Part shown: positions 186-61,618 of the stretch, in pieces
Numbering within the stretch: position 1 is the stretch's first letter
Layout: the number at the start of each line of letters is the position of its first letter
Source of the DNA: Eledone cirrhosa
Lineage: Eukaryota
Assembly (NCBI GenBank): GCA_964016885.1
Contig: OZ024740.1
Span: 234,484,001-234,548,000 of the forward strand
Reading direction: 5' to 3'
DNA length: 64,000 nt
Made by a program: the position numbers and the translations under genes
Notes under the pieces: generated by a model
Databases searched by the model: none
Seen by the model: only the letters and a program-made list of their open reading frames with translations
Told to the model about the DNA's origin: nothing

Positions 186-360
186 TATTTCGTTTCTGAA
201 TTTGTTTAGCAACCGATATTGTTATACTTTGGGAGGGTCATGTTGCCAATAAGAAACACACGCACCAGTTGCTTTCACTTCAATTTATTATAATAAATTT
301 ATAAATTTATAAATTTCTGGTTGGTTGGTTGGTTCCACAACCAGATAGTTGTTTATATAT

Positions 361-405
361 AGTCATAGTTCTTTCGTCACACACTCTGTGACCTCTTCAG
401 TGACT
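361..405 (-). ncRNA. Minimal type I hammerhead ribozyme in the PLE pLTR
   Basis: Reverse complement reads AGTCA CTGAAGA G GTCACA-gagtg-TGTGAC GAAAG-aa-CTA^TGACT (stem I AGTCA/TGACT). Confidence 0.75.
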
Positions 406-605
406 GGGGATTCCTTTCTTTGTTTCTGTGCCTCTCCTTTGTTCTGTCCTACGCCATTTTGTTTCTGTGTGTGTGTTGTGTGCTCAGTCTGCGCATGTGC
501 CACATCCGGGTGTCTGTGTGTGTTTATGTTCATTTATTTATTTGTTTACTTACATGTTACTGGTTGGTTGTTTGTTCTATGTGTGTGTGTGTTTTCATTT
601 TGTCC

Positions 606-2880
606 TTAATTGTAAGTTGTGATGTTGCTGTTCCACTCATATTTTCTATTTAATTTTGGTTGTAATTCTTTTATGTTTATTGCCTCTGTAATTTGTCTAA
701 ACATTGCGTCTTTTCTGTGTGTAGATTCTATTTTTATTTCTATGTTCTCTAATTTACCCTTGTGTTCTATTTTAGCATGTTGGTAGAGTACAGATGATTC
801 TTTACTATCTTGAAGGTCTCGCCAGTGTTCATTTATCCGTTCCCCTACACTACGAGCTGTCTCACCTATGTACACTATATTTTTGTCTCTACATTGTCCT
901 TCAGTACATCTTATGCTATACACTACATTTCTAGTTTTACAGTTAATATGGGGGCTTATTTTACAGGTTATACATTTCTTATCTATACATGAGGGTCTTT
1001 GGAAAGGGTATGTCTTGCTAATAAGTGTTTTTACGGAGGTACCTGGTCTTTCTACTATCTTAATATTGAGTTTATGTTTATTTAGGGCCCTTCTAAATGT
1101 GTAAGCTAATTCACATCTAGGGGTTGTATCGATGAACATTACACTCTGGTATTTATTGCTATCATACCATGAGTTTATTTTATTAGCCTTATTCCTAGTT
1201 CTTTCTATTCTATTCCAAAATTTGCTCCTATACAAGGGGCAGGTCCCATTTATGTCATTATTTACCATTTTTTCCCATTTAGTTCTGGCTCCTCTATACA
1301 CTCTGATTTTATCTATCTGATTGTAGCCAGAGAACTGCATACGGTGGATGAAGTGTTGTATGTGTCTCTCTAGTTCTTCGGGGTTGCACATGCGGGACAC
1401 GTTTCTCATCACCCGTACCAAATCCGCAATCAGTATGTTGATTTTGGTATGGTCCGAAACGGCCGAGTTTCGGTGGATCAGATGTTTGGAAGTCATGGGT
1501 TTGGCATAATGGGAATGGAGGATTTGTTTTTTGTTATTAATGGTATCTAACCAGAGCTCTGTGTCTAGTACAGGTAATCGATGGTTGGGGTGTTTACTTG
1601 GGTAGTCTATAGTAACTCTAATGCTTTGGTGGATGGAGTTAGCTATTTGCTGGATGCTTTCCATTGTGTTTTTCTCTAGTTCCTGACTGTTCTCTAGTGG
1701 GGGTGTCTTAACTACGATGTTTATATCCTCAACGTAGCGGGAGTACATTATCAGGGTTAAGGGGTCTTCTAATTGTTCTTTAAGTTTAAGTTTAAGTTTA
1801 AGTCTACTGTCCCACCATACCATGAATAAGTTATCTATGTCACCTGCAATGCTAACACCAATGGCTGCTCCTTCCTCTTGGGCATATGTTTTTCCATTAA
1901 ATTTGAACATATCTTCCTTAAGGGTTAGTTTTATGCTGGCCCCTACCGCATGTGCAATCATTTTCTTCAGTTCATCGTGGTTTTCGGGTGTCCGTATGGC
2001 TCTGGTCCACCCGTTCCATCTATCTGTGTGGGTTTTCTTGGCCATTGAGGTAATGGTAGGTGGTCTGCCTCTTGCTGGTCTTGTAGGGCACAGGTTGCTA
2101 AGGTCATATGTGTTTAGGTAATTATTACTATAGGTAAGTTTAAGTAGGAGTCCCAGCTCACTGGTATCAATCCCACGGAACTCAACATTGCTCTCACTGA
2201 TCATTTCTACGCATTTCTCTACAGCAAAATCCACGTCAATAGATGGATACAGGGACACAACATCCATACTACCTATTATGCAGTTTGTTAGGTCCCTAGA
2301 TCGGTTACTCACGCCGATTCTGCTGAGGAAGTCCTCCGTGCTGTCACATACATCTGTGGACATTTCAATGATGGGGCGTATGATCAGTGAGAGGAAGTAG
2401 GACAGTCTGTAGTTACTAGCAATGTTAGCTCCACAGACTGGCTGTGTTGGTGGTCCCGCGACAGGGTCACTGCCCGTTTTATGGTCTTTTCGAAGCCCAT
2501 ACAACGCCGGCACGTCATTGTTCCAGGCCTGGAAGTTGTTGGCAGTCCTTTTGTTGGGCTGCATTATATTCGTCCACATCACCATATGGGCATTGAGGGC
2601 TTTTTCTCTATCCTCATGCTCCTGTGGTGTTACCTCTCTTGTGTTAGTGATGTGGGGTTGCATTGCCTGGATGTAGTTTGGCAGGCTGTCAACCGACATT
2701 CTGCCAGACATGTCTGTTGGAAAGCATGCTATCTCTCCATTACGCGAGCGCTGCATGAGCTTACGCAAGCCATTTGCAGATTTTTCTCCCAGTTGCTGGG
2801 CCTCCATTCTATTATGCTTCTTGCTATACTGTTCTATAATATTTCTAAGTTCGGATCTAGCTATACTAAATTGTGCTTCT
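606..2880 (-). pseudogene. PLE reverse transcriptase, Cys-rich linker and GIY-YIG endonuclease (probably inactive)
   Basis: RT motifs YGLRKDHK, GSMDVVSLYPSI, GAAIGVSIAG and RYVEDI (catalytic YVDD changed to YVED). Linker CIDKKCITC..C. Endonuclease NVVYSIRC...VYIGETAR...H...H...RQITEA..I....P.LN. Confidence 0.9.
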
Positions 2881-4277
2881 GCGACGGCAATTGCGTGCGT
2901 TTGTTAAATGGTAGAGTCGTGGCGTGGACTCGTCGCAGGTCGAACGATTTATCGGAGGGATTATAAAACGTAGAGTTCCAGGCTGCTGCTTTATGTGTAC
3001 TAGTGCTATTGTTATTGTTAGTTGTGTTCTTTCTATTTCTATTTCCACCAACAGCCTCATGGTTGTTTCTATGTCTCTCATAATTACTCCTGTCTCTTTC
3101 CACTGGCTCAATGTTGTTATCTACCCTATTTTATGTGTCTGTGTGTTCGTTTTGGTTATTCTCTTTGTCCTTAGTCTCCCTTCTCCTTTTGATCCTATTA
3201 CTTTCCCTTATTTCTGTGATTTCTGTGCTACTGTCATTACTTGTTTTCTGTGTCTGTGTGTTTGTTAAGATTGTGGTGGTGGTGAGAGGCATTGAATGCG
3301 TGTGTGTTGTTGTTGTTGATGTGTGCTGTTGTTGATGTGTGTTGTTGTTGTTGTCTCCGTGTGTGTTATTATTGTTGTGTGTGTTGTTATTGTTGTTTGT
3401 GTCTGTGTGTCTGTTGTTGTTGTTTCTGGGTATGTTATTATTGTTGTTGTTGTTGGTGTGTGTGTTGTTGTTATTGTTGTTTGTGTCTGTGTGTCTGTTG
3501 TTGTTGGGATGTGTGTTGTATATGTGTGTGCGTATATTGTTGCTTTTGTCTTTGTTTTTGTTTTTGAGGCTCCAGCGTAGTTTTGTAAATGATTTTTCTA
3601 TTTCTGACAGACAACTAATCATATTTACCTTCTTGAATGTCGCAAATCGCGGGGGCAGAGATAATACAGATAACTCATCATTATCTAATATTGTGTTGCC
3701 GTATATATTTGTGTTGTTGTTATTGTTGAACTCATCCGTTAATGAGGTGTCGGCCATATTTATACCGTCAATTTTGTCGGGATATCTATTGGTATTCTCT
3801 ATAGTATCCTGATTTAGCTTTATCTGCTTAAGCCACTTTAGTTTCTTGTTAAAGTACTTATCACATTCTTGAGTAATGTACTGTTCTTCAAGACGTATAA
3901 GGCTTATAAATATTAGTTTCTCTCTTGGTGATCCTAGCTATTTCTTGTATTAGGTTACGCTTATGTTTTTCTTGATGACTTAATTCTCTATAGATCTTCT
4001 TTTTTATGTTTAGAATTAGTGTTCGTTTTAGCCTATCTGCTTGTTTTTTGGTGAGTTGTAATCTTCTTACGTCGGTGTTGATGGTGTTGGTGTAAACTCG
4101 GGACAAGGCACATTCTTTTATGAAGTGTAGTTGTCGAGATGTTATGGTTTTTCGTAGACAACAGAACATGGTGGTTTTCAGTATCTTGTTAGCCTGGCTA
4201 AGGCTTACGATATTTCGTTTCTGAATTTGTTTAGCAAGATTCTTTATCTGAAATCGTGTGTTGAAACCGATATTGTT
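2861..4277 (-). pseudogene. Frameshifted N-terminal part of the PLE ORF with an Asn/Thr-rich (AAC)n insert
   Basis: ORF pieces 3888-4277, 3131-3757 (LSVLSLPPRFATF...EIEKSFTKLRW) and 2861-3103 (FYNPSDKSFDL...LPFNKR) lead into the RT frame (AEAQFSIARSELRNII...MEAQQLG). Confidence 0.7.
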
Positions 4278-5131
4278 TCGGACCATACCAAAATCAACAT
4301 ACTGATTGCGGATTTGGTACGGGTGATGAGAAACGTGTCCCGCATGTGCAACCCCGAAGAACTAGAGAGACACGTACAACACTTCATCCACCGTATGCAG
4401 TTCTCTGGTTACAATCAGAGTGATAGAATCAGAGTGTATAGAGGAGCCAGAACCAAATGGGAAAAAATGGTAAATAATGACATAAATGGGACCTGCCCCT
4501 TGTATAGGAGCAAATTTTGGAATAGAATAGAAAGAACTAGGAATAAGGCTAATAGAATAAACTCATGGTATGATAGCAATAAATACCAGAGTGTAATGTT
4601 CATCGATACAACCCCTAGAGGTGAATTAGCTTACAAATTTAGAAGGGCCCTAAATAAACATAAACTCAATATTAAGATAGTAGAAAGACCAGGTACCTCC
4701 GTAAAAAAACACTTATTAGCAAGACATACCCTTTCCAAAGACCCTCATGTATAGATGAGAAATGTATAACCTGTAAAATAAGCCCCCATATTAACTGTAA
4801 AACTAGAAATGTAGTGTATAGCATAAGATGTACTGAAGGACAATGTAGAGACAAAAATATAGTGTACATAGGTGAGACAGCTCGTAGTGTAGGGGAACGG
4901 ATAAATGAACACTGGCGAGACCTTCAAGATAGTAAAGAATCATCTGTACTCTACCAACATGCTAAAATAGAACACAAGGGTAAATTAGAGAACATAGAAA
5001 TAAAAATAGAATCTACACACAGAAAAGACGCAATGTTTAGACAAATTACAGAGGCAATAAACATAAAAGAATTACAACCAAAATTAAATAGAAAATATGA
5101 GTGGAACAGCAACATCACAACTTACAATTAA
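4275..5131 (+). pseudogene. Inverted duplicate of the PLE C-terminus (RT thumb plus GIY-YIG)
   Basis: ORFs 4227-4754 and 4814-5131 are near-identical to the C-terminus of the 606-2807 protein, with a frameshift in the A-run at about 4705. Confidence 0.9.
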
Positions 5132-5331
5132 GGACAAAATGAAAACACACACACACATAGAACAAACAACCAACCAGTAACATGTAAATAAACAAATAAA
5201 TAAATGAACATAAACACACACAGACACCCGGATGTGGCACATGCGCAGACTGAGCACACAACACACACACAGAAACAAAATGGCGTAGGACAGAACAAAG
5301 GAGAGGCACAGAAACAAAGAAAGGAATCCCC

Positions 5332-5376
5332 AGTCACTGAAGAGGTCACAGAGTGTGTGACGAAAGAACTATGACT
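5332..5376 (+). ncRNA. Minimal type I hammerhead ribozyme in the PLE pLTR
   Basis: AGTCA CTGAAGA G GTCACA gagtg TGTGAC GAAAG aa CTA^TGACT. Confidence 0.75.
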
Positions 5377-5513
5377 ATATATAAACAACTATCTGGTTGT
5401 GGAACCAACCAACCAACCAGAAATTTATAAATTTATAAATTTATTATAATAAATTGAAGTGAAAGCAACTGGTGCGTGTGTTTCTTATTGGCAACATGAC
5501 CCTCCCAAAGTAT

Positions 5514-5662
<149 letters not shown>

Positions 5663-5673
5663 CTTGACCGACC

Positions 5674-5931
5674 AGTAAGTATGTCGAAAAACGTTTCACA
5701 CTATATATATTTTTAACGATTGACTTTCGTCAAATCGGACCGAGGAAACAATGTTTCCATTGGTCTTTCCAATTGCTAATACTATCTATCGGTCGCAACT
5801 CCAGGTAGAAGGAGCAACGTGAAATAAAATGTCTTGCTCAAGGACATAACGCATCACCCGGTCTGGGAATCGATCTCACAACCTCAAGATTACGAATCCA
5901 GTTCTCTAACCACTCAGCCACACGCCTTCAC

Positions 5932-5997
<66 letters not shown>

Positions 5998-6248
5998 CAC
6001 ACACACTCACACACAGTGTTAAGGCGTGTGGCTGAGTGGTTTGAGAACTGGATTCCCAGACCGGGTGATGCGTTATGTCCTTGAGCAAGACATTTTATTT
6101 CACGTTGCTCCTTCTACCTGGAGTTGCGACCGATAGATAGTATTAACAATTGGAAAGACCAATGGAAACATTGTTTCCTCGGACCGATTTGACGAAAGTC
6201 AATCGTTAAAAATATATATAGTGTGCAACGTTTTTCGAAATATTTACT
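5674..6248. repeat. Inverted duplication containing a tRNA-headed, CORE-like SINE in each arm, around (GT)n
   Basis: Arms about 5674-5937 and 6010-6248. Head ggcgtgtggctgagtggttagag..., CORE-like gtccttgagcaagaca. Confidence 0.7.
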
Positions 6249-6408: not shown

Positions 6409-8517
6409 GTGTGTATGTATGTATGTATACGTACATACATATATGTATACAGACGTACAGTAGTATGTATATATATACATACATGCGCACATATATATAT
6501 GCTCGTATCGGTTTACCAAACATTTATTATAATGCTCGGTTTGTTTGTTTGTAAACAAACAAACAGCCCGAATTACGCCGTACAGTGTTTAGGCAACCAC
6601 GTCACCTTTTTGTTCATATATACATACTACTGTACGTCTGTATACATATATGTATGTACGTATACATACATACTTACATTTAAGTAAGTGCGGTACTAAG
6701 GGTGAGAAATGAAATTTCGTTTCATTCTATTCCATTTATCATTTTCGGTGTGCCTGGCCGACTGAACTCACTCGATATGCAAATTAGACTGCTCAGCCGT
6801 TAATATGCATAAGGAAAGTATATACTTTCAGACGTTCAACCATCTGGCAGGAAGGTATAGGATGCTGACGATAGCTAATAAGCTTGAAACTAGTACATCG
6901 TTCCTGTGTCAGTGTTGAACAAAAAGGTGACGTGGTTGCCTAAACACTGTACGGCGTAATTCGGGCTGTTTATTTGTTTACAAACAAACAAACCGAGCAT
7001 TATAATAAATGTTCGGTAAACCGATACGTGCATATATATATATATGTGTGCATGTATGTATATATATACATACTACTGTACGTCTGTATACATATCTGTA
7101 TGTACGTATACATACATACTTACATTTAAGTAAGTATCGTACTAAGAGTGAGAAATGAAATTTCGTTTCATTCTATTCCATTTATCGTTTTCGGTGTGCC
7201 CGGCCGACTGAACTCACTCGATATGCAAATTAGGCTGCTCAGCCGTTAATATGCATAAGGAAAGTATATACTTTCAGACGTTCAACCATCTGGCAGGAAG
7301 GTGTACGATGCTGACGATAGCTAATAAGCTTGAAACTAGTACATCGTTCCTGTGTCAGTGTTGAACAAAAAGGTGACGTGGTTGCCTAAACACTGTACGG
7401 CGTAATTCGGGCTGTTTGTTTGTTTACAAACAAACAAACCGAGCATTATAATAAATGTTCGGTAAACCGATACGTGCATATATATATATGTGTGCATGTA
7501 TGTATATATATACATACTACTGTACGTCTGTATACATATTTGTATGTACGTATACATACATACTTACATTTAAGTAAGTGCCGTACTAAGAGTGAGAAAT
7601 GAAATTTCGTTTCATTCTATTCCATTTATCGTTTTCGGTATGCCCGGCCGACTGAACTCACTCGATATGCAAATTAAGCTGCTCAGCCGTTAATATGCAT
7701 AAGGAAAGTATATACTTTCAGACGTTCAACCATCTGGCAAGAAGGTGTACTATGCTGACGATAGCTAATAAGCTTGAAACTTGTACATCGTTCCTGTGTC
7801 AGTGTTGAACAAAAAGGTGACGTGGTTGCTTAAACACTGTACGGCGTAATTCGGGCTGTTTGTTTGTTTACAAACAAACAAACCGAGCATTATAATAAAT
7901 GTTCGGTAAACCGATACGTGCATATATATATATGTGTACATGTATGTATATATATACATACTACTGTACGTCTGTATACATATATGTATGTACGTATACC
8001 TACATACATACTTACATTTAAGTAAGTGCCGTACTAAAAGTGAGAAATGAAATTTCGTTTCATTCTATTCCATTTATCGTTTTTGGTGCGCTCGGCCGAC
8101 TGAACTCACTCGATATGCAAATTAGGCTGCTCAGCCGTTAATATGCATAAGGAAAGTATATACTTTCAGACGTTCAACCATCTGGCAGGAAGGTATACGA
8201 TGCTGACGATAGCTAATAAGCTTGAAACTAGTCCATCATTCCTGTGTCAGTGTTGAACAAAAAGGTGACGTGGTTGCGTAAACACTGTACGGCGTAATTC
8301 GGGCTGTTTGTTTGTTTACAAACAAACAAACCGAGCATTATAATAAATGTTCGGTAAACCGATACGTGCATATATATATATGTGTGCATGTATGTATATA
8401 TATATACATACTACTGTATACATATATGTATGTACGTATACATACATACATACTTACATTTAAGTAAGTGCCGCACTAAGAGTGAGAAATGAAATTTCGT
8501 TTCATTCTATTCTATTT
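6405..8517 (+). mobile_element. Retrozyme-like tandem array (about 445-bp unit, about 4.3 copies) with an inverted 5' segment
   Basis: HHR cores CTGACGA at 6865, 7311, 7755 and 8203. 6405-6614 is the reverse complement of part of the unit. Both flanks are (TA)n. Confidence 0.85.
7305..7347 (+). ncRNA. Type I HHR, representative of the 445-bp unit
   Basis: ACGATG CTGACGA t AGCT aata AGCT t GAAAC ta GTA^CATCGT, with palindromic ACTAGT in stem III. Confidence 0.85.
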
Positions 8518-8519
8518 AT

Positions 8520-9416: not shown

Positions 9417-9421
<5 letters not shown>

Positions 9422-9956
9422 ATACTTTGGGAGGGTCATGTTGCCAATAATTAAATAGAAAATATAAGTGGAACAGCAACATCACAACTTACAATTAAGG
9501 ACAAAATGAAAACACACACACACACACACATAGAGCAAACAACCAACCAGTAACATGTAAATAAACAAATAAATAAATGAACATAAACACACACAGACAC
9601 CCGGATGTGGCGCATGCGCAGACTGAGCACACAACACACACACAGAAACAAAATGGCGTAGGACAGAACAAAGGAGAGGCACAGAAACAAAGAAAGGAAT
9701 CCCCAGTCACTGAAGAGGTCACAGAGTGTGTGACGAAAGAACTATGACTATATATAAACAACTATCTGGTTGTGGAACCAACCAACCAACCAGAAATTTA
9801 TAAATTTATAAATTTATAAATTTATTATAATAAATTGAAGTGAAAGCAACTGGTGCGTGTGTTTCTTATTGGCAACATGACCCTCCCAAAGTATAACAAT
9901 ATCGGTTTCAACACACGATTTCAGATAAAGAATCTTGCTAAACAAATTCAGAAACG

Positions 9957-9962
<6 letters not shown>
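9417..9962 (+). mobile_element. Truncated copy of the PLE pLTR family with a short inverted 5' piece; HHR at 9705-9749
   Basis: Near-identical to 5084-5519 plus the ORF-start tail ending cgaaat|atat. 9417-9450 is inverted. Flanks are (TA)n. Confidence 0.88.
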
Positions 9963-15414: not shown

Positions 15415-15446
<32 letters not shown>

Positions 15447-15724
15447 ATTGTTATACTTTGGGAGGGTCATGTTGCCAATAAGAAACATACGTACCTTTTG
15501 GTTTTCACTTCAATTTATTATAAATTTTAAAAAATTTATAAATTTCCGGTTGGTTGTTCATATATTGTAACACATGCGCAAACTAAGCACACAACACACA
15601 CAAAAACAAGATGGCGTAGGACAGAACAAAGGAGAGGCGCAAAACAAAGAAGAAAAGAATCCCCAGTCACTGAAGAGGTCACAGAATGTGTAACGAAAGA
15701 ACTTTGACAATATATGAACATATT
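15447..15724. mobile_element. PLE pLTR remnant (inverted piece plus direct piece); HHR at 15665-15708
   Basis: Similar to 218-330 followed by similarity to 5235-5385. Flanks are (TA)n. Confidence 0.8.
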
Positions 15725-34949: not shown

Positions 34950-37900
34950 ATGGCCGTACTTAGAATAGGCAGTATAAATGTACGTGGCCTGGGGGTCATC
35001 CTGGAAACAGGGTCACCTGCTTAACGACCTCAGGTCACTAAACATAGATGTGGTGGCCATCAGCGAGACCAGAATCTCCGATGCACGACCCTTCGCACCG
35101 ATCTTCGGCGGCTACGATGTATACGCATCTCTCAGCCGTCCAGGATCGAGGGGAGGGGTGGCAGTGCTTTTTCGGAGAGGCTTGGATTCGCCATACAGGC
35201 CACATTCCTGGATCCAGAAGGTAAGTCGGTGGTGCTGGACGTGACCGGCAGCAAAAGCATTGCTTTCAGGCTAGTAGCCATCTACGCCCCAACTGGGGTA
35301 GGACGGCGAGATTTCTTCAGACGTCTAGAGACCTTTCTTGGAACGTCCTGCTCTTTAGTGTTAGTAGGCGACTGGAACGGTATCTTAGATGCAGGCTGGG
35401 ATTATGTGGGGCTAGTAGACAGGACAAGAGGGTGTAAAAGCTTCAACAACCTGCTCAGACGTTTTGAACTGTCTGACAGGTATAGACTGGATTATCTGTA
35501 TGTGCCAATGTGGATATGGGCAAACCGCATCGGGTCATCCAGATCGTATTTAGATACGGTATTCTGTAGGGAAACAGATAAGGCTAGTGTAGGTTGTCCA
35601 CAATTTAAAGTAGTCGACTACACGGACCACACATTTGTGATCTGTGAAGTTGACTTAGATAGACTCCATAAGCAAAGAGCCCGGCTACTGGAAGCTGAAC
35701 GCGTCGTTCCCGGCACGCAAAGCTTACAGAGACCGGATTAGCGAATTAGTTAAGCGTGCGTTGACGGGTGCGATCGTCCACAACAGGTGGTGGTTTACCC
35801 TGAAAAGGGCTATTAGAGTAGAATCGATAGGGTTTAGCAAAGGAATAGTGATAGAGGAAAATAGAGTAGAAGGAGAGCTAGTTAGAAAGCTAGAAGAGGC
35901 GTTTAGGACAGGCATCGCAACCGACGTGCTTGCGGCGAGATTGGCACTCGACCAATTCTTCAATGCAAAACATGAAGGCTGCGTTGTCAGAGCTAGAGCG
36001 CGTGCTCTAAGACACGAGGGGAGGAAAGCCGTTCAATGGGCCCGGTGGTGGATGCGCGACGTGGCAACAAGTCCACAATTCGGTCTTTGCCAGATCAAAA
36101 CGGGCGCATGTTACTCTAACCCGAGCAGATGTGTGCAACTTTTCAATAGCACTTTGCCCGATTGTTCGAGAGCGACGGGCCGGATCGGGGTATGGACTTC
36201 GGTGCATACCTCCACGGACTGCTGCGGCTCTCGACGACCGTAGCGCAGTGCTATGAAAGGCCGATAACAGCTGGTGAAATACGGGAAGCGATGTCTGACT
36301 GCACGAGGGGGAAATCGCCAGGTTTGGATGGTCTAACCTATGAGCTGTATGCGTATATGCCAGACTTGTTCGGCGACCTCTTGGCAGATGTATACTGCAA
36401 CTGGCAGCAAAACGGGAGCATTCCCAGTTTTGTGAGCCGGGGAGCGGTGGAGCTGCTTAGAAAAGACCCGAACAAGGGGGACGTTATAGACAACCTCAGG
36501 CCCATAACTCTGCTAAACGCAGAGTTTAAGATTTTGGCCAAGGTGTTAGCAAAGAGATTGGCGCTTGTCGTCGGTGATCTGGTGGGAGAGGCGCAGACAT
36601 GCGCCATTCCGGACAGAATAATCCACCACAACCTCCACCTCATGCGATACATCATAGAGAGAGGGGGTTAAGCAACATGGCACGGGTGGGGTCCTGATCA
36701 ACTTGGATCAATCTAAAGCATTTGATAGGGTCGACCAACGGTACATGGCTGCGGTCTTCGAGGCGGCCGGCTTCGGGCTCGTTTTTAGGGGCTGGATCGC
36801 TGCGATGCACAGCGACATCTGCTCGATTGTGAGGGTGAATGGTCACCTGTCGCAACCTTTCAGCGTCATGCGCTCGGTCCGCCAGGGTTGCCCTCTCTCG
36901 TCCCTCTTGTACGCACTGGCCCTCGAGCCGTTACTTCACAAATTGGAGACGAAGAGGGGGATCCCACGCGAACTGGGATGCGGGAGATCCGTGTCAGCTT
37001 GCGCCGACGATGTCACCGTGGTGGTGTCGAGCACCAAACACGTCCAGATGCTCGGCACCGCTCTCAAGAAATACGAAGCTGTGACAGGAGCAAAGATAAA
37101 CCAGGAAAAGTCGGTGGGCTTGCAACTCGGCACATGGAGAGGCAAGTTCATGCCGTCCGACAGCGTCGTGGGGCGCTGGACGGAATGACCAGTTAAATTG
37201 CTCGGGTTCTGGTTCGGTTCGGACCTCCAGATGGAGAAAAACTGGAGTGGGGTGACGAGCAGGGTGGCCTCTCTCACTCAGAAATAGGCCGAGAGGAGGC
37301 TGCCTCTGAAAGGTCGGGCGGAGGTGGCGAATTCGTACATAGCGTCCATCATCTGCTACCGCCTGACCGTCGTACCTTGCCCCCGACCAACTCTGACCAA
37401 AATGGAGCGCCTTCTCTTCCGCTTTTTGTGGAAGGGACGTGCTCCCATGGTCAGACGATCCATTTGCTGTCAACACCCGTTGCGTGGAGGACTAGGCATG
37501 CCGTGGCTGATGGCGCAAACATACGCTGAGACTGCGACATCTCTGGTGCTTCCTTGACGGTGAACAGGTGTGGTCGCCGTTTGCCAGATGCGCTTTTCCC
37601 CAGCTCGTCTCCTTGATGGAGCTGCAGTCCTGGATCAGGAAAAGACCAAGGGATAGCGCTTGGAAGCTGGAATGTCTCCAAGTGCTCACCGCCCTCTACC
37701 AGCTGGGCGCTAGTCTCGGTGGAACATCCATCTCGGCGTTCTATAGAGGGCTAGTAGGGGGAAAGAGCGATGACGTTCTCGGGGAGACTCTGGGCGTCGA
37801 AGACGATCAGCTGTTCGTTCTCTTCAAGAGAACTTTCAGATCGGGGCCTATGGACAACTTCCAGAAATCCCTGGCCTGACAGTGCTATCGGGGAGCTTTC

Positions 37901-38368
37901 CCGGTTCGGGATAAGCTCTACAGGCACGGAGGTGCTGTCAGCTGAGCCTGTCCGAGATGCGCGCAGGGCGATGAAACCGTCCTGCACGCACTCGTTCAGT
38001 GCCCGAGGATTGCTGACTTGTGGAGCTATGTCGAACAGTTGCTGTCGCGTGTAAGGCGGATCCGGTTATCGACTGAGTCCATTGTGCAGATAGCCCCGCC
38101 ATCCCCTTTTAAAGAGGAGGAAGAGCAGGCAGTTTTCATCTGCCTGGTGGCCATGGCGAAAGAGATTGTGTGGTGGACAAGGTTGAAAGGGTTGAAGATG
38201 GAAAATTTCCTCTCCGGCCAATCCCTGATTAACTTTTTCAAGTTTCACTTGAAGAGGAAAATCAGGATGGAGAGGCAAGTGCTGTCTGCTAGTAAGTTTG
38301 TTGAAAGGTGGGTGAAAGTGGCGAGTCTGGTCCGAGTGAACGGGCCCGTTCTGAGTATACGCCTATAG
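34950..38368 (+). pseudogene. Tx1 ORF2 (AP endonuclease, RT, C-terminal Cys motif) with multiple frameshifts and stops
   Basis: MAVLRIGSINVRGL, VAISET, VGDWN, YLD, TDH, KSPGLDGL, LRPITLLN, DQSKAFDRVD, VRQGCPLS, CADD. Confidence 0.9.
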
Positions 38369-39275: not shown

Positions 39276-39309
<34 letters not shown>

Positions 39310-39317
<8 letters not shown>

Positions 39318-40983
39318 GAATCACACAGATACATGCGGACACACACATATATACATGAATGCATCCGCACCCAACTGTGAGTTAAGGGTGCCAACTTCAC
39401 CGATGTTGCTCAATGAATGACTGGGACAGACCAATTCAGTTTGAACCGGACTGAACCAGTATCAGAGTTAAAAATACATTATGAAGAGAGAAGAAACATT
39501 TAGATATAATTAGTAATAAAATGTATCATACCTAAACTGTTCCTAAATTCCTCGACTACGTAGTTTCGTGGCATAAACAAAAACAATATATCAAAGATAT
39601 AGAGTCCTTGCGAGGTCTGCCGACTTATCAAGAGGATACCTCATTTTACTAGTCTCAAGAACGCGTCTACACGACGTGAGAAAGAATCCCAAAAGGCGGA
39701 GGGGGAGATAGTCACGCGATATAACGGTCGAGAAACAGAGCCAAGCCTCTTATAACCACGAAGAAAATACCACGGAGGCGGAGGGGGTATTCATATCGAG
39801 GCCGCAGAAGAGGTAGTGAAGAAGGCGAGAAGTATGAGTAATGGAAGCTTTCCAGTTGTCCCCACACTTCAAAGATTGCTCGACCAGAGGGAGTTAATAT
39901 ATTTAGAATCACACAGATACATGCGGACACACACATATATACATGAATGCATCCGCACCCAACTGTGAGTTAAGGGTGCCAACTTCACCGATGTTGCTCA
40001 ATGAATGACTGGGACAGACCAATTCAGTTTGAACCGGACTGAACCAGTATCAGAGTTAAAAATACATTATGAAGAGAGAAGAAACATTTAGATATAATTA
40101 GTAATAAAATGTATCATACCTAAACTGTTCCTAAATTCCTCGACTACGTAGTTTCGTGGCATAAACAAAAACAATATATCAAAGATATAGAGTCCTTGCG
40201 AGGTCTGCCGACTTATCAAGAGGATACCTCATTTTACTAGTCTCAAGAACGCGTCTACACGACGTGAGAAAGAATCCCAAAAGGCGGAGGGGGAGATAGT
40301 CACGCGATATAACGGTCGAGAAACAGAGCCAAGCCTCTTATAACCACGAAGAAAATACCACGGAGGCGGAGGGGGTATTCATATCGAGGCCGCAGAAGAG
40401 GTAGTGAAGAAGGCGAGAAGTATGAGTAATGGAAGCTTTCCAGTTGTCCCCACACTTCAAAGATTGCTCGACCAGAGGGAGTTAATATATTTAGAATCAC
40501 ACAGATACATGCGGACACACACATATATACATGAATGCATCCGCACCCAACTGTGAGTTAAGGGTGCCAACTTCACCGATGTTGCTCAATGAATGACTGG
40601 GACAGACCAATTCAGTTTGAACCGGACTGAACCAGTATCAGAGTTAAAAATACATTATGAAGAGAGAAGAAACATTTAGATATAATTAGTAATAAAATGT
40701 ATCATACCTAAACTGTTCCTAAATTCCTCGACTACGTAGTTTCGTGGCATAAACAAAAACAATATATCAAAGATATAGAGTCCTTGCGAGGTCTGCCGAC
40801 TTATCAAGAGGATACCTCATTTTACTAGTCTCAAGAACGCGTCTACACGACGTGAGAAAGAATCCCAAAAGGCGGAGGGGGAGATAGTCACGCGATATAA
40901 CGGTCGAGAAACAGAGCCAAGCCTCTTATAACCACGAAGAAAATACCACGGAGGCGGAGGGGGTATTCATATCGAGGCCGCAG
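39310..40983 (-). mobile_element. Retrozyme-like tandem array, 588-bp unit, about 2.85 apparently identical copies
   Basis: Period 588 (identical ORFs at 39712 and 40300). Minus-strand HHRs at 39549-39636, 40137-40224 and 40725-40812. Flanks are (TA)n. Confidence 0.9.
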
Positions 40984-41056
40984 ATATGTATATAATTCTA
41001 TAAATATATATATATATATATATATATACTTATATATATATATATATATATATATA

Positions 41057-44932: not shown

Positions 44933-45985
44933 GGTCACCAGTTGGTGCTACTGGTAACATGTATCCCAGTACAACCTGTCTCATGGTCGGGTCGTTGGCG
45001 ACTAAACTGGCAACCCCACCAAGGTTTCTTGGTGAGGAGGGTGACTTTGGACATCCTGCAGGACTAAAAACAAAACCTGTCAAAGGGCAAAGGAGCTCTT
45101 AAGAGTCAATGGCCATCCAAAATCACCGGGAGAGATGACCCCTTAGCCTTTGTCAAGGTAGAATTCTAGGAGAAGGAAAACTCTGATATAACACCTGCAA
45201 CCCTGATGGTATCCAATGATGTTGACTTGTTCTTCTTTTTGGTAAATATCATCTTGGTTAAGAGAGTGGGACTGGCTTTGTGCAGTGCCTTTGCTCACTA
45301 TAAAAGCTTCACGGCACAGGCATTGCTTTATATCTGGAGATCTCTCTGCACTTGTCGTCACATGGTACCATGGGCCCAGCACTATGTGTCAATAATTGTC
45401 ACAGGTGTAGTGTTTGTACCAGAGTTTTCAAGTCACTGGCTGGACTAAAAAGTCACACTTGTTCAGGGCATCGGTAGGGGTTCTCCTACATGGATATAAA
45501 GTAGTGGCCGTACTCGAAAACGAGTTGGCAGCCACCATGTATCTATGTATGTATTTCGGAAGAGATGACCCCATAGCCTTTGTCAAGGCAGAATTCTAGG
45601 AGAAGGAAAACTCTGATATAACACCTGCAACCCTGATGGTATCCAATGATGTTGACTTGTTCTTCTTTTTGGTAAATATCATCTTGGTTAAGAGAGTGGG
45701 ACTGGCTTTGTGCAGTGCCTTTGCTCACTATAAAAGCTTCACGGCACAGGCATTGCTTTATATCTGGAGATCTCTCTGCACTTGTCGTCACATGGTACCA
45801 TGGGCCCAGCACTATGTGTCAATAATTGTCACAAGTGTAGTGTTTGTACCAGAGTTTTCAAGTCGCTGGCTGGACTAAAAAGTCAGACTCGTTCAGCGCA
45901 TTGGTAGGAGTTCTCCTACATGGATATAAAGTAGTGGCCGTACTCGAAAACGAGTTGGCAGCCACCATGTATATATCTATCTATC

Positions 45986-48001: not shown

Positions 48002-48900
48002 TAATATAAATTAATAAAAACAATGAAATAAAAACAAAGAACAGGTTCCTTATATTGAAAAATTCATCATTTTACGATCGTTTCTGGGCTATATATGTGT
48101 GTGTTGGTATGTATATCATGTTAAAGGTGTATGTAAAAAAATATTACAAATTATCAGAGGAGATATATATACCTTCACCTATATATGCCATCTTCAGAAA
48201 TGATGAAGTATGTTTATTGAAAGAAACAAAGTATTAATATAAAAGATCTGTTTGGGAACAGGTTTTGAATTGACCAATAGAAAAGAGTTAGAGGTCAAGT
48301 TGATAGAATAACAGTAGTAGAATTTGATGCTAGGAGTGGAGGAATGTAAATTTATGCTTTGAATGAAAATAATCCAATGGGGAAGATAAATATAGGGGTT
48401 AAAATGAGGTCAGAATACAAGGAGTTAGTGAAGGAGACCCCCCAAAAAATGTTGATATTATTAAAAAATGCTGTTGAAAGCGAAGGGAAAGAAATTTGTG
48501 GGTTGAGAGTGATATCTTTCTCCTCCCCATTGTATTCTTTTCATTCAAAGCATAAATTTACATTCCTCCACTCCTAGCATCAAATTCTACTACTGTTATT
48601 CTATCAACTTGACCTCTAACTCTTTTCTATTGGTCAATTCAAAACCTGTTCCCAAACAGATCTTTTATATTAATACTTTGTTTCTTTCAATAAACATACT
48701 TCATCATTTCTGAAGATGGCATATATAGGTGAAGGTATATATATCTCCTCTGATAATTTGTAATATTTTTTTACATAGATCTTTAACATGATATACATAC
48801 CAACACACACATATATATCCCAGAAACGATCGTAAAATGATGAATTTTTAAATATAAGGAACCTGTTCTTTGTTTTTATTTCATTGTTTATATTAATTTA
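48002..48900. mobile_element. Foldback element (about 355-bp arms) with a long-stem-II HHR in each arm
   Basis: TTCATCATTT CTGAAGA TGG...CCA GAAAC gatc GTA^AAATGATGAA at 48700-48844 (plus) and 48063-48207 (minus). Confidence 0.85.
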
Positions 48901-49386
48901 TCTTGACTCTGTTTTCTTAGGATTTTTATCGCTAATTTTTGAATGCAATTTCTCTTTTCATATCTTCTATATTTGGATTACATTGAGTTCTTCATGCCGA
49001 TTGCACACTACCGTTTATTTTGGTAGATTTATCTACATATATATAATATATATATAATATATATATATATAACATATATATATATATACACATACATACG
49101 CACATACACATACATACATACATACATGATACATATTTGTGTGTACTGTACTGCATATGTGTATGCGCATATAAAACTAAACACGTGTACATATATACAC
49201 GTGAATATAGACATACATGCGTATCTATACACGTTATTCAAACACACTCACAGGGAGAAAACATCCAGCTACACACGTAAATATACGAAGATATACCTGA
49301 CCTGTGATTGTAAACTCGACACCTGTCTAATCGTACACATTTGTACATGCGTTTGTAGGTATGTTTGCATATATATATATATCTAT

Positions 49387-49820: not shown

Positions 49821-52665
49821 TGTCCTGGGTATGACATTAAACTACATCCAGTGGCAAGGCTCCAGTTCGGGAGTTCAGGAGATGTGGGGAATGTGGAGTT
49901 ACCCCTTAGTTGTCATGACTCCCAGGTCTGCCCTGGCCCGGGGTGGTAGTACCTGTTAGGGCTCCATTTATGGGTTAAATAACTACCTTATTCGAGTGGC
50001 GCCGGTAAGGTATTGTCAGCCATTGAAAAGAAATATGGAGAGTCGATCTAACAGCACTAGGGTTAGAGCCCCTAATTACACTGTCAAGGAGCAGCCTGGT
50101 CGTTATGACTCTGCTGGCTTAGAGCCACAGAGAGGGCCAGTGGATGATGGATCAGCTGTCTCTGAGACAAATATAAAGAATGCAGTTTTGTCCTGCAGAA
50201 GAGCCATCAAAATGGGCACTTTGAATGTGAGGACTATTCGAACGCTGGAGAAGGGAGAGTAGTTGGGACATCTGTTCGAGGAGAGTGGTATACAGATACT
50301 TGCGATCCAAGAAAACAGGATTCTACACGATGAGCCCGTGAGGAGTGTGATGATCGGGAGAAAGAGCCAGCTCATCACTACATCGGCAGTGAAGAACACA
50401 ACAAATGCTGCAGTAGGAGGAGTGGGTTTTGTGTTCAGTGCAAAAACCAATCTGTTGGTGAGGGAAATAATGCCTATCTCCCCGCGAGTGTTGAGGGTGA
50501 CCTTCAATGGAAACCCAAGACTGACAGTCATCTCAGCCTATAGTCCAACCGAGGGGGACAGTGATGTGAATGCCGAGGAGTTCCATGAGGAGGTGTGTAG
50601 AGCTGTCAACACCACTCAGGCACACAATATCCTGCTTGTTTTGGGGGACTTCAATGCACATCTGAGTAAGGAGGGCAGTGAAGATCCTTGCTGGTACTTC
50701 CATAACAACACCAACTGAAATGGAAGACTACTGAGAGACACCCTGCTGGAGGCGAACTTGATGGCGACCAACCTAAGGTTTAGGAAGAATCTGGGGAAGA
50801 TGTGGACCTACATCTCAGATATGCACCTGTCCAAGTCCCAGATTGATTTCATTCTGGTGAGGAAAAAGTGGCGGAATAGTGTTCTGAACACGGAACCATA
50901 CAGCTATTTCAGTACACTGGGTAGTGACCACCGGCTTGTTATGAGTGAGGTCCGCGTGAGCTTAAGAAAGAGCAAGGCTCAGCCCCGGAGAACAATCTAT
51001 GACTGGGGAGCTTTCAAGGAAGATGATAAGCTACAGGAGAGGTTCACAGTGGAAGTGAGAAACAGGTTTAGTGCTCTGTGTGGAGAGTCAGAGGAGAGAG
51101 AGATTGGATAGACTGAGGAGAGTGTGACGAGGAGGTACGGGCACTTCACCAATGCAGTGGCGAAAGCAAGTGAAACCCTAGTGCCGAGGAAAAAGAACAA
51201 AGGGAAGCACGTCAGCTCTGCAAACCCAAAAGTGTGTGCAGCCAGAGAACACCTGAAAGCTGCCAGGGACCAATTCTATGCTGATCTTACGGAGGAGAGG
51301 ATGGAGACTGTGGAGGTGATGAGGGAAGAGCTCTGTACCGCTTACACTGAGGTCAGAGAAGAGGCACTGATAGAGAAGATCAGAAGTGTGGAGAGAGCGG
51401 TTGACAGATCTGGATGTAAGGAGAGCTGGATGATCATCAACGAGATCACAGGGAGGAAGAAAAGGTGTTCGAGTCAGATCCAGGGAACGGGGCCCGAGGA
51501 TAGGAAGAGGAAATGGCAAGACCATTTTGGGACCCTACTAGGAGAGCCACCCTCCACAGCCCAGAGCACTGGGGAGATCAGGCGGCTGTTTGAGGAACTG
51601 GATGTTGAGACAGAGCCCTTCACCAGAGAGGAGCTTCAGAGAGCCAAGAAGAAGATCAAGGAGGGCAAGGCTCATGGAGAAGATGGAGTGGCATCAGAGG
51701 TGATGAAGAGGTGTGATTTTGATGATATCATCCTGGGGTTCTGTAACGGGGCACTGGAGAAAGGAGTTGCCCCGAATCAGTGGAGGATCAGTAACATCGT
51801 CCCAGTGCCAAAGAAGGGAGATCTCTCTATCACCAACAACTACCGGGGGATCTCACTGACGTCACTTGTGGCAAAGACCCTCAACAGGATGATTCTTAAC
51901 AGGATCCAGCCTGAGATGGAGAAGAAGCTCAGGGACAACCAGAACGGCTTCAGAGAGGGTAGATCAACCACCAATCACATCCTGATGCTGAGGAGGATAT
52001 TAGAGGGAGCTAGAGCAAAGTGCCTTCCTCCGGTCATGGTTTTCATTGACTTTAGGAAGGCCTTTGATTCTGTGGACTGCCTGATGAAGATCTTACAGGC
52101 TTATGGAATCCCCAAGAGGATAGTGGACCTGATATCACTGCTCTACACCAACACCATAGCCCAAGTCATTACACCTGATGGGATGACAGAGTTCTTTGAG
52201 ATACTGGCTGGAGTGCTCCAGGGAGATACATTGGCTCCCTACCTTTTTATCATCGTAGTGGACTATTGTATGCGCCTTGCACTGGAGAAACACCAGGACT
52301 CTGGCTTTACTGTAGCACCGGCTCAGAGCAGGAGAGTTGGGGCGAAAAAGGTATCGGATGCTGAATTTGCCGACGACATAGTTTTGGTGACAAATACAGT
52401 GAAGGAGGCAAAGGATTTGATGTGGGAGGTTGAGACTGTGTCGATGAGTGTGGGGCTGAGAATGAATGAGACTAAAATAAAATATCTGGTAGAGAATGTT
52501 GAGAAGCCAGAGGGGATCACTAATGTAGGCGGGAAGCCGCTGGAATTGGTTGAGGACTTCCTGTATTTGGGAGCAAAGATTGGGAATACGGAAGATGATG
52601 TGGTTGAGAGGAAGAGCAAGGCCTGGGCGGCGTGTCACAGCTTGAGATCGGTGTGGAAGTCGAAT
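49388..52665. mobile_element. RTE-clade LINE with an inverted (twin-primed) structure
   Basis: 5'UTR, APE and RT on plus 49821-52665. The C-terminal remainder is on minus 49820-49388. Flanks are (TA)n. Confidence 0.9.
50035..52665 (+). pseudogene. RTE ORF (AP endonuclease plus RT) with in-frame stops
   Basis: GTLNVRT, LAIQE, SAYSPT, LGDFNA, SQIDFIL, GSDH, NYRGISL, QNGFR, FIDFRKAFDSVD, GVLQGDTLAPYLF, EFADD, FLYLG. Confidence 0.92.
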
Positions 52666-52801
52666 ATATATATATATATATTTAAATATATGTACGTTGT
52701 ACGTATGTGTGTCTGTGTGTATATGAGTGTGAGTGAGTGTGTGTGTGTGCGCGTGTGTGTGTGTGTGTGTGTGGGTATGAGTGTGCGTGTGTATGTGTGT
52801 G

Positions 52802-52834
<33 letters not shown>

Positions 52835-52987
52835 ACAGTGTTGGCCATAATTAGCACACTAACTTAGCGGCAAGAAATATTAATAAAAAGGAAATCTTTG
52901 TAACATTAAACTTTGCTAGCACGACATTATAATGTGGCTTTGTAATTGGTAAACTAATTAAGAAAACTAATTAATGCCCATCATGAC

Positions 52988-54722: not shown

Positions 54723-55712
54723 GGAAAAAATGAAACGAAATTTCATTTCCCACTCCTAGTACGGCTGTTACTTAAATATAAGTATGTACACGTATATACA
54801 TATATGTATACAGACGTACAGTAGTATGTATTTATATATACATATATGCACACATATATATATATATATGTACGTATGGATTCACCGAACATTTATTATA
54901 ATGCTCGGTGTGTTTGTAAACAAACATCCCGTATTAAGCCGTAGTGTCCAGCAACCATCGTTGCTCGTTTGTTCAACACTGACAAAGGAACGCTGTACTA
55001 GTTTCAGGCTTATTAGCTATCATCAGCAATGTATACCTTCCTGCCAGATTGTTGAACGTATATACTTACCTTATGCATATTAACGGCTGAGTAGCCCAAT
55101 TTGCATATCGAGTGGGTTAATCGGTCGGCTTAATACGGGATGTTTGTTTACAAACACTCCGAGCATTATAATAAATGTTCGGTGAATCCATACGTACATA
55201 TATATATGTGTGCATGTATGTATATATATATACATACTACTGTACGTCTGTATACATATATGTATGTACGTGTAACATACTTATATTTAAGTAACAGCCG
55301 TACTGGGAGTGGGAAATGAAATTTCGTTTCATTTTTTCCGTTTATCGTTTTCGGTGCACCCGGCCGATTAACCCACTCGATATGCAAATTGGGCTACCCA
55401 CCCGTTAATATGCATAAGGTAAGTATATACGTTCAACAATCTGGCAGGAAGGTATACGTTGCTGACGATAGCTAATAAGCTTGAAACTAGTACAGCGTTC
55501 CTTTGTCAGTGTTGAACAAACGAGCAACGATGGTTGCTGGACACTACGGCTTAATACGGGATGTTTGTTTACAAACACGCCGAGCATTATAATAAATGTT
55601 CGGTGAATCCATACGTACATATATATATATATGTGTGCATGTATGTATATATATATATATATATATACTACTGTACGTCTGTATACATATATGTATGTAC
55701 GTGTACATACTT
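54718..55712. mobile_element. Diverged subfamily of the 445-bp retrozyme-like unit, inverted plus direct arms
   Basis: HHRs at 54990-55032 (minus, CTGATGA) and 55456-55498 (plus, CTGACGA). Unit about 420 bp. Confidence 0.85.
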
Positions 55713-60010: not shown

Positions 60011-60165
60011 TGTGTGACTCTCAGAAATACCCCCACCACAATACGGTAGACAGTTGGCTGTGTTTAGTTAGAGATAGATGTAAATATCTCGTTTCCTGTA
60101 ATATAATTTTACAAATGCAGATATTACTTCTGCAATGTTCAGAAAATCATTATATATATATATAT

Positions 60166-60830
60166 GAGGAATTTAGGAACAGTTTAGGTATGATACATTT
60201 TATTACTAATTATATCTAAATGTTTCTTCTCTCTTCATAATGTATTTTTAACTCTGATACTGGTTCAGTCTGGTTCAAACTGAATTGGTCTGTCCCAGTC
60301 ATTCATTGAGCAACATCGGTGAAGTTGGCACCCTTAACTCACAGTTGGGTGTGGATGCATTCATGTATATATGTGTGTGTCCGCATGTATCTGTGTGTTT
60401 CTAAATGTATTAATAACTCCCTCTGGTCGAGCAATCTTTGAAGTGTGGGGACAACTGGAAAGCTTCCATTACTCATACTTCTCGCCTTCTTCACTACCTC
60501 TTCTACGGCCTCGATATGAATACCCCCTCCGCCTCCGTGGTATTTTTTTCGTGGTTATAAGAGGCTTAGCTCTGTTTCTCGACCGTTATATCGCGTGACT
60601 ATCTCCCCCTCCGCCTTTTGGGATTCTTTCTCACGTCGTGTAGACGCGTTCTTGAGACTAGTAAAATGAGGTATCCTCTTGATAAGTCGGCAGACCTCGC
60701 AAGGACTCTATATCTTTGATATATTGTTTTTGTTTATGCCACGAAACTACGTAGTCGAGGAATTTAGGAACAGTTTAGGTATGATACATTTTATTACTAA
60801 TTATATCTAAATGTTTCTTCTCTCTTCATA

Positions 60831-60835
<5 letters not shown>
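60166..60835 (+). mobile_element. Dispersed copy of the 588-bp retrozyme-like family: 591-nt monomer plus about 79-nt overlap
   Basis: gaggaatttaggaacag occurs at 60166 and 60757. Flanks are (TA)n. Confidence 0.9.
60674..60761 (+). ncRNA. Type I HHR with U3-A8 core and palindromic stem III
   Basis: TCCTC TTGATAA GT c GGCA...TGCC AC GAAACTAC GTAGTC^GAGGA. Confidence 0.78.
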
Positions 60836-60860
<25 letters not shown>

Positions 60861-60864
<4 letters not shown>

Positions 60865-61447
60865 CGTTTCTGCATTTGTTTAGCAAGATTCTTTATCTGA
60901 AAACGTGTGTTGAAACCGATATTGTTATACTTTGTGAGGGTCATGTTGCCAATAAGAAACACACGCACCAGTTGCTTTCAATTCAATTTATTATAATAAA
61001 TTTATAAATTTAGGAATTTATAAATTTCCGGTTGGTTGGTTGGTTCCACAACCAGATGGTTGTTTATATATTGTCAAAGTTCTTTCGTCACACATTCTGT
61101 GACCTCTTCAGTGACTGGGGATTCTTTTTTTTTGTTTTTGTTTTTTTGTTTTTGTGCCTCTCCTTTGAAGAGAAACAAGATGGCGTAGGACAGAACAAAG
61201 GAGAGGCACAAAAACAAAACAACAACAAAAAAACAAAGAAAAGAATCCCCAGTCACTGAAGAGGTCACAGAATGTGTGACGAAAGAACTTTGACAATATA
61301 TAAACAACCATCTGGTTGTGGAACCAACCAACCAACCGGAAATTTATAAATTCCTAAATTTATAAATTTATTATAATAAATTGAAGTGAAAGCAACTGGT
61401 GCGTGTGTTTCTTATTGGCAACATGACCCTCCCAAAGTATAACAATA
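60861..61447. mobile_element. Foldback made of two PLE pLTR ends; HHRs at 61073-61116 (minus) and 61251-61294 (plus)
   Basis: Same pLTR family as 187-5521, with no coding sequence between the arms. Confidence 0.88.
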
Positions 61448-61618
61448 TATATATATATATATATATTGTCTGCGCTGCCAATACCGGGTTAACCACAAAT
61501 CATGGTAGTACTCTATGCATGGGAAGGAGCTTAGTAGGTATAAAGGAAGTTATAAACCTGACCACGACGCCCAGCGTTCGGCCTGTATGTAGCAAGCCTT
61601 CACGAGGGTATATCCTTC

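Follow-up and report, generated by a model that had tools for sequence, protein, structure and literature searches.

We found that the insertion beginning at position 60166 of the window (the whole 64,000-nt stretch of DNA analysed here, to which positions refer unless a locus is named) is a single-armed member of a young family of 591-nt, non-coding, non-LTR retrozymes with a predicted hammerhead ribozyme. The dominant template of the family had intact ribozyme junctions, and it is probable that a Penelope-type enzyme twin-primes a (TA)n break at unit bases 80 and 245, copying a likely uncut circular monomer. Counting the ends of the copies reverses the earlier idea of a cut template: RNA that has been cut is copied rarely at most, and copying as a rule runs through the cut site.

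Beyond the left (TA)n target tract (60151–60165, plus strand, as are all features of this copy), the insert begins at 60166 with GAGGAATTT, its first base being unit base 1, directly 3′ of the hammerhead GUC. This left junction is unambiguous, as TAT precedes the insert where the unit’s own sequence has GTC. One full unit (60166–60756; fold z −5.3 against shuffles), its first base 3′ of the predicted cleavage site, is followed by bases 1–80 of the next (60757–60836), and 60166–60245 is an exact repeat of 60757–60836 at a period of 591. The arm ends at the first of two priming sites, site 80, at 60836 in (TA)n, where base 79 and base 80 are ambiguous with the TA tract; an internal copy of this site (AATGTAT) lies at 60239–60245, and the second site, 245–247 (60404–60412), was read through. 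The right (TA)n tract (60837–60862) is common to the long 3′ end of an adjoining Penelope-like insertion. An initial annotation of this DNA had placed the start at the predicted cleavage product after (TA)n and had described a 591-nt unit running through an uncleaved hammerhead to end about 79 nt into the next; both descriptions were borne out, with the end set at base 80.

The predicted hammerhead is of type I with a U3–A8 core (60668–60761; 60674–60761 without its bulge), and cleavage is predicted at 60756/60757. In this model, stem I (5 bp) pairs 60674–60678 with 60757–60761, the core UUGAUAA (60679–60685) is followed by an extended stem II (60686–60742) and GAAA (60743–60746), and a 10-nt palindromic stem III (60746–60755) leads to C17 at 60756; a bulge, GAGGT (60668–60672), would be able to pair with ACCTC (60694–60698). 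The drawn structure was 98.7% paired across four related sequences, and the core was unchanged in two relatives 75–78% alike, whose stem I had one two-sided and one one-sided change. This covariation amounts to one pair in four sequences, a level reached by 124 of 500 shuffles, and it is, like the core conservation, no more than suggestive. Rfam at its gathering score gave 0 matches in the 64,000-nt window and did not call the hammerhead; an unconstrained fold of the motif alone gave no support (z −0.37), and the active fold lay 3.4 kcal/mol above the minimum. A hammerhead pattern with a shorter stem II occurred in five places, of which the four that were read are older retrozyme copies or variants. 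Loci L229 (1223–1760) and L233 (1354–1641) hold an older subfamily, 75–78% alike, whose hammerhead core is the same and whose 3′ ends are equivalent.

Each priming site sits directly 3′ of a strong predicted hairpin. Hairpin A (unit bases 10–62, with an outer helix of 1–5 with 67–71; 60166–60236; z −3.9) lies immediately 5′ of site 80, and its outer helix is predicted to close exactly at base 1 and to compete with stem I. In a circular fold, bases 1–5 paired with 67–71 and displaced stem I, a predicted off state of the hammerhead. Hairpin B (unit bases 171–234; 60336–60399; z −4.9) lies immediately 5′ of site 245, and bases 175–178 at its foot are a hot spot of 5′ ends.

The family comprises at least about 4,500 arms in the 3.0-Gb genome, a total built from forward-strand counts of (TA)n junctions (1,404 at base 80 and 910 at base 245–247), reverse counts being inflated by double listing. 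Median identity of the copies to the 60166 copy is 98%. A neighbouring open reading frame has its best named match in Octopus vulgaris (68%), which makes a cephalopod host likely. For a sample we took the first-listed 3′-end matches on contig 1 (2.8–105 Mb), where 140 loci gave 114 regions and 169 arms; chosen by 3′ end, the sample is unbiased for the 5′ end. It leaves out arms that were less than 90% identical or were truncated by the edge of a region, one duplicated copy, and any arm lacking a 3′ end close to 80 or 245. All but two arms (167 of 169) end in TA; median arm length is 544 nt, with a maximum of 2,907 nt, and arrays of 6–7 units per arm exist. The family is present in four contig runs, one of which (X1) has a head-to-tail contig that could be tandem DNA; a search for RNA records carrying the family listed none. 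A second copy in the window (39309–40984, minus strand) starts at unit base 337, runs through two full units and ends at 245; its units are 588 nt long and have private variants in common.

The tandem units each hold one type I hammerhead, and the family ends in (TA)n junctions instead of long terminal repeats. The unit has no stop-to-stop frame of 120 aa and contains no open reading frame for a reverse transcriptase with a GIY-YIG endonuclease; it is not an autonomous Penelope-like element but probably works with one. The copies are dispersed, with fixed 3′ ends and ragged 5′ ends, as retrotransposed copies are, and show the inverted 5′ copy, one-ended tail and microsatellite target of Penelope-mobilised sequences; target-site duplications are unreadable within (TA)n. 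The initial proposal of a recently active, retrozyme-like element, reverse-transcribed into (TA)n with Penelope-type priming, is supported.

We place the family among the non-LTR retrozymes of metazoans, as an addition whose Penelope footprint is clear. As described for those elements in PMC7229834 and 10.64898/2026.07.22.740005, it has tandem non-coding units with one type I hammerhead each, a short palindromic stem III, GC below 50% and no LTR, and Penelope elements have been proposed as the mover. The 591-nt unit is longer than the 150–450 nt given in the accessible text of Cervera and de la Pena 2020 (PMC7229834) but lies within the 51–972 nt of Li, Clavereau and Pollet 2026 (10.64898/2026.07.22.740005). 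It differs in its U3–A8 core and long stem II, and is known here from DNA sequence. Dispersed insertions that have two arms and a pair of fixed 3′ ends are absent from the descriptions in the accessible parts of the same two sources. Copying of retrozyme circles by Penelope elements is a proposal in these papers, backed there by co-occurrence and terminal-repeat homology; the present family supplies thousands of near-identical insertions with countable ends. The open literature gave no report of a cephalopod retrozyme, a point on which the supplements of both papers may bear, and, outside subscription papers, none of a 5′-end count at a retrozyme cut site.

Head-to-head arrangements account for 115 of the 169 arms, mostly joined via 1–11 common bases, and every head-to-head pair with two clean ends (54 of 54) combines 80 with 245. 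Over all fetched loci the combination held in 94 of 97 pairs; the remaining three junctions (L035, L119 and L125), among which are one complex and one duplicated locus, were scored 80+80. The same fold-back junction occurs four times, at L119, L120, L125 and L126 (C5:81.33 Mb and C1309), adjoining N runs and on a small contig, and is likely an assembly duplication or local repeat. At base 77 all 150 internal copies have G, but 15 of the 86 terminal ones have A, the pattern that would be expected if a TA primer annealed over base 77.

In the mechanism that we propose, a Penelope-type reverse transcriptase–endonuclease would cut both strands of (TA)n and begin copying at RNA base 80 from one of them and at base 245 from the other, by target-primed reverse transcription with few base pairs between TA primer and RNA. 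The mover would be a Penelope-like partner. The circle may form by hammerhead cleavage of multimers, probably as dimers via the palindromic stem III, followed by host ligation. For the 60166 copy, only the site-80 arm would have been kept, copied from 80 to 1, through the junction, for one further round and to a stop at base 1, caused either by a break in the RNA at the ribozyme site or by a hairpin that closes at that base.

Several features of this scheme have counterparts in published systems. As far as described in PMC8557442 and PMC3846280, endonuclease-bearing Penelope elements likewise have a head-to-head 5′-truncated copy, a one-ended tail and (TA)n targets, and the accessible text of PMC11167929 describes two internal start sites with a hammerhead lying upstream. 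According to that text, the purified Penelope protein acts on both strands, cutting and extending them, has no need of ribozyme cleavage, and starts at two internal sites, which define the tail. The retrozyme differs in having no open reading frame and in its tail of 165 nt, against 30–40 in the Penelope elements described; its start sites match the target at 3–6 bases, whereas the start site described in PMC11167929 lacks homology with the DNA that is cut. PMC4209133, in its accessible part, describes U3–A8 hammerheads in Schistosoma Penelope elements and states that hammerheads with a short palindromic stem III are thought to cleave as dimers, sparing monomeric circles. The minimal hammerheads of the Cercyon Penelope elements described there have the same core covariation, with dimer-type cleavage expected, but the motif predicted here is a full type I with stem III, in a non-coding tandem unit and with a possible 5-bp loop–bulge pairing. 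In the part of PMC3846280 that treats them, head-to-head repeats are attributed to self-priming on antisense RNA. Self-priming fits the present pairs poorly, and twin priming better, because the two 5′ ends lie within 15 nt of each other in just 7 of 54 pairs. Most site-245 arms (45 of 57) extend beyond base 80, so strand displacement or two template molecules would be needed. With a unit of 591 nt, two start sites and two hairpins, the family offers a defined substrate for the study of twin priming in vitro.

The two arms of an insertion appear to have been copied from one sequence. Alleles were discordant at 5 of 1,398 comparisons within arms and 6 of 1,022 between arms, against 90,314 of 267,296 (34%) between insertions, and units within one insertion differ at 0.4–0.6% of variable sites. 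The 52 rare variants common to all passes of an insertion lean towards A>G (17, against 9 T>C), whereas single-pass variants do not (8 A>G, 23 T>C; P 0.004 for the contrast). This lean suggests repeated copying of an RNA monomer in the polarity of the ribozyme; its cause may be A-to-I editing of the template.

Read-through of the cut site as the rule is what a circular template predicts; against this, linear multimers from homogeneous arrays would leave largely the same patterns. If the template were an uncut linear multimer transcribed from a genomic array, with circles having no role in transposition, this would account for the arms of 6–7 units and agree with the accessible text of PMC11167929, in which unprocessed RNA is the main substrate and cleavage is unneeded. 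We think this unlikely: 5′ truncation (at a median arm of 544 nt) would shorten arrays each round unless they were regenerated, and the A>G-biased rare variants recur in every pass of an insertion, which would require repeated copying of a monomer at some step. Spread as a DNA-level satellite, by unequal exchange, rolling-circle DNA or gene conversion with the ribozyme as a passenger, is scarcely credible. Tandem structure would suit it, and a local-amplification model is raised in the accessible text of 10.64898/2026.07.22.740005, but the polarity of the ends largely refutes it: the insertions are dispersed with fixed 3′ and ragged 5′ ends, the 80+245 pairing is strict and the A>G lean is strand-biased. 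Returning to the circular monomer, a more specific version, for which we put the chances at even, is that a Penelope dimer primes one (TA)n break at the two hairpin-flanked sites of a single edited circle, which in about 1 pass in 200 is open at the hammerhead. Both enzymes would then roll round the circle by strand displacement, and an open hammerhead site would let both cDNAs run off at base 1. If this were so, the strict pairing would also explain the one-sided Penelope tail, with one start site per strand.

The 5′ ends speak against routine copying of cleaved RNA. In the 169 arms they were scattered (ten bins, P 0.12) and one lay at base 1; an intact cut-site junction lies inside 147 of the arms, and the site was read through in 223 of 224 passes (about 99.5%), the 60166 copy itself crossing one intact junction. 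First rounds did not stop at base 1 more often than later ones (16, 5 and 1 stops by round, against 148, 56 and 20 passes; P 0.72), and a larger peak stood at base 176. On these counts, ribozyme-cut linear RNA as the normal template, with copies running off at base 1, is refuted as the main route and very improbable as a rule.

Other counts favour a role for the cut site. Genome-wide we found 22 exact base-1 starts against 6.9 expected from the mean stop rate, an approximately threefold excess (P ~4e-6; 6.1–7.7 expected for 4,000–5,000 arms, or 9.3 by the local rate). The search patterns required a non-C before base 1 and matched 15 + 23 places, and removal of 13 point mutants and three duplicates of one locus from these 38 left 22; the count includes the G14 subfamily, and copies with C at base 8 were missed and are covered only by a 74% anchor correction. 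TA-joined 5′ ends were about 2.7 times denser at bases 2–31 than at 562–591 (about 140 against about 40, hand counts in which the downstream figure is twice a reverse count of 70, with 35 places listed). Short fold-backs with both ends near base 1 numbered 26 (28 minus two duplicates), against 7 in an upstream control window (P 0.005). By hand count, base 1 accounts for 7 of the 52 fold-back ends and base 2 for 4, together 11 against 1.9 expected; in L218 two copies of base 1 meet with one extra base between them, and in L220 base 2 is joined to base 2. These fold-back ends at bases 1 and 2 make a minority of cut templates plausible.

The base-1 excess may, though, be unrelated to cleavage, the enzyme or cDNA falling off at the foot of hairpin A on its 5′ side, or the 60166 start being a chance event; this explanation, which concerns the base-1 claim and leaves the family model untouched, we rate as somewhat probable. 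The predicted outer helix ends exactly at base 1, and the foot of hairpin B, free of any ribozyme, also collects ends. At base 176, 62 places matched, and 17 of the 30 examined were true ends (the other 13, point mutants, were dropped), giving about 35 in all against 6.0 expected and a stop rate of about 0.9% of passes, above that of base 1 (about 0.5%); bases 170–180 hold 11 of the 169 sampled ends. However, base 176 was picked after viewing the sample, which bears on the existence of peaks without a ribozyme and not on their frequency, and its A is common to the TA target by one base. The outer helix of hairpin A is also short, and the 1-to-1 (plus one base) and 2-to-2 joins resemble two cDNAs running off one RNA end.

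As a single event the 60166 start is hardly beyond chance, about 7 arms being expected at any base. Since 58–69% of base-1 starts exceed chance (about 30–40% being expected by chance) and two causes of, in our judgement, similar weight compete for that excess, its 5′ end is possibly, at somewhat below even chances, a cut RNA end. The initial annotation had read this copy as evidence of cleavage in vivo and copying of the cut RNA, and as its strongest support for an active retrozyme-like cycle. The copy does not bear that weight, stronger evidence lying in the 3′ ends, the arm pairing and the within-insertion identity; the claim itself is weakly supported, by the threefold excess and against near-universal read-through. 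The histogram of 5′ ends that it had proposed has a small peak at base 1, taken up by one of 169 arms and exceeded at 176. The useful result is this small, ambiguous cut-site excess against general read-through.

The initial annotation had also suggested looking for a Penelope-like partner by sequence or 3′ priming. A like pairing of ends was found: in each of three Penelope-like insertions of the window a long 3′ end is matched with a short one in (TA)n, and one of the three adjoins the 60166 copy. The sequence match was not, as the one element compared has nothing beyond 10–15-nt simple matches with the unit, and its tail is 56 nt against 165 in the retrozyme. Because it has no sequence in common with the unit, the Penelope-like element of the window is a candidate by behaviour only. 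Among 16 non-TA flanks there was no head-to-head chimera with a Penelope-like element.

The element compared is young (187–5521), with open reading frame pieces at 606–4361 (minus strand), a C-terminal GIY-YIG, an inverted 5′-truncated arm, and a distance of 56 nt between its long and its short 3′ end; Pfam gave no match in its three frames. There may be a minimal C3–G8 hammerhead at ~404–362 (minus strand), as judged by eye and partly present in the fold. Two short palindromic insertions of the same Penelope-like family (9417–9959 and 60863–61448) each pair a long and a short end, and another at ~15445–15720 has the short end with no long-end match. At L241, a 70-nt retrozyme arm (176 to 245) lies directly behind a Penelope-like short 3′ end in the same orientation, probably in a common target. 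Elsewhere in the window, tandem arrays with periods of 444 nt (6616–8519) and 430 nt (45127–45984) adjoin (TA)n, and 35025–38368 and 50263–52854 hold broken LINE-type elements in which there are reverse-transcriptase (RVT_1) and endonuclease-like frames. Long inverted repeats with short spacers, possibly other two-armed insertions, occur at 48003–48904, 54825–55663 and 5674–6248.
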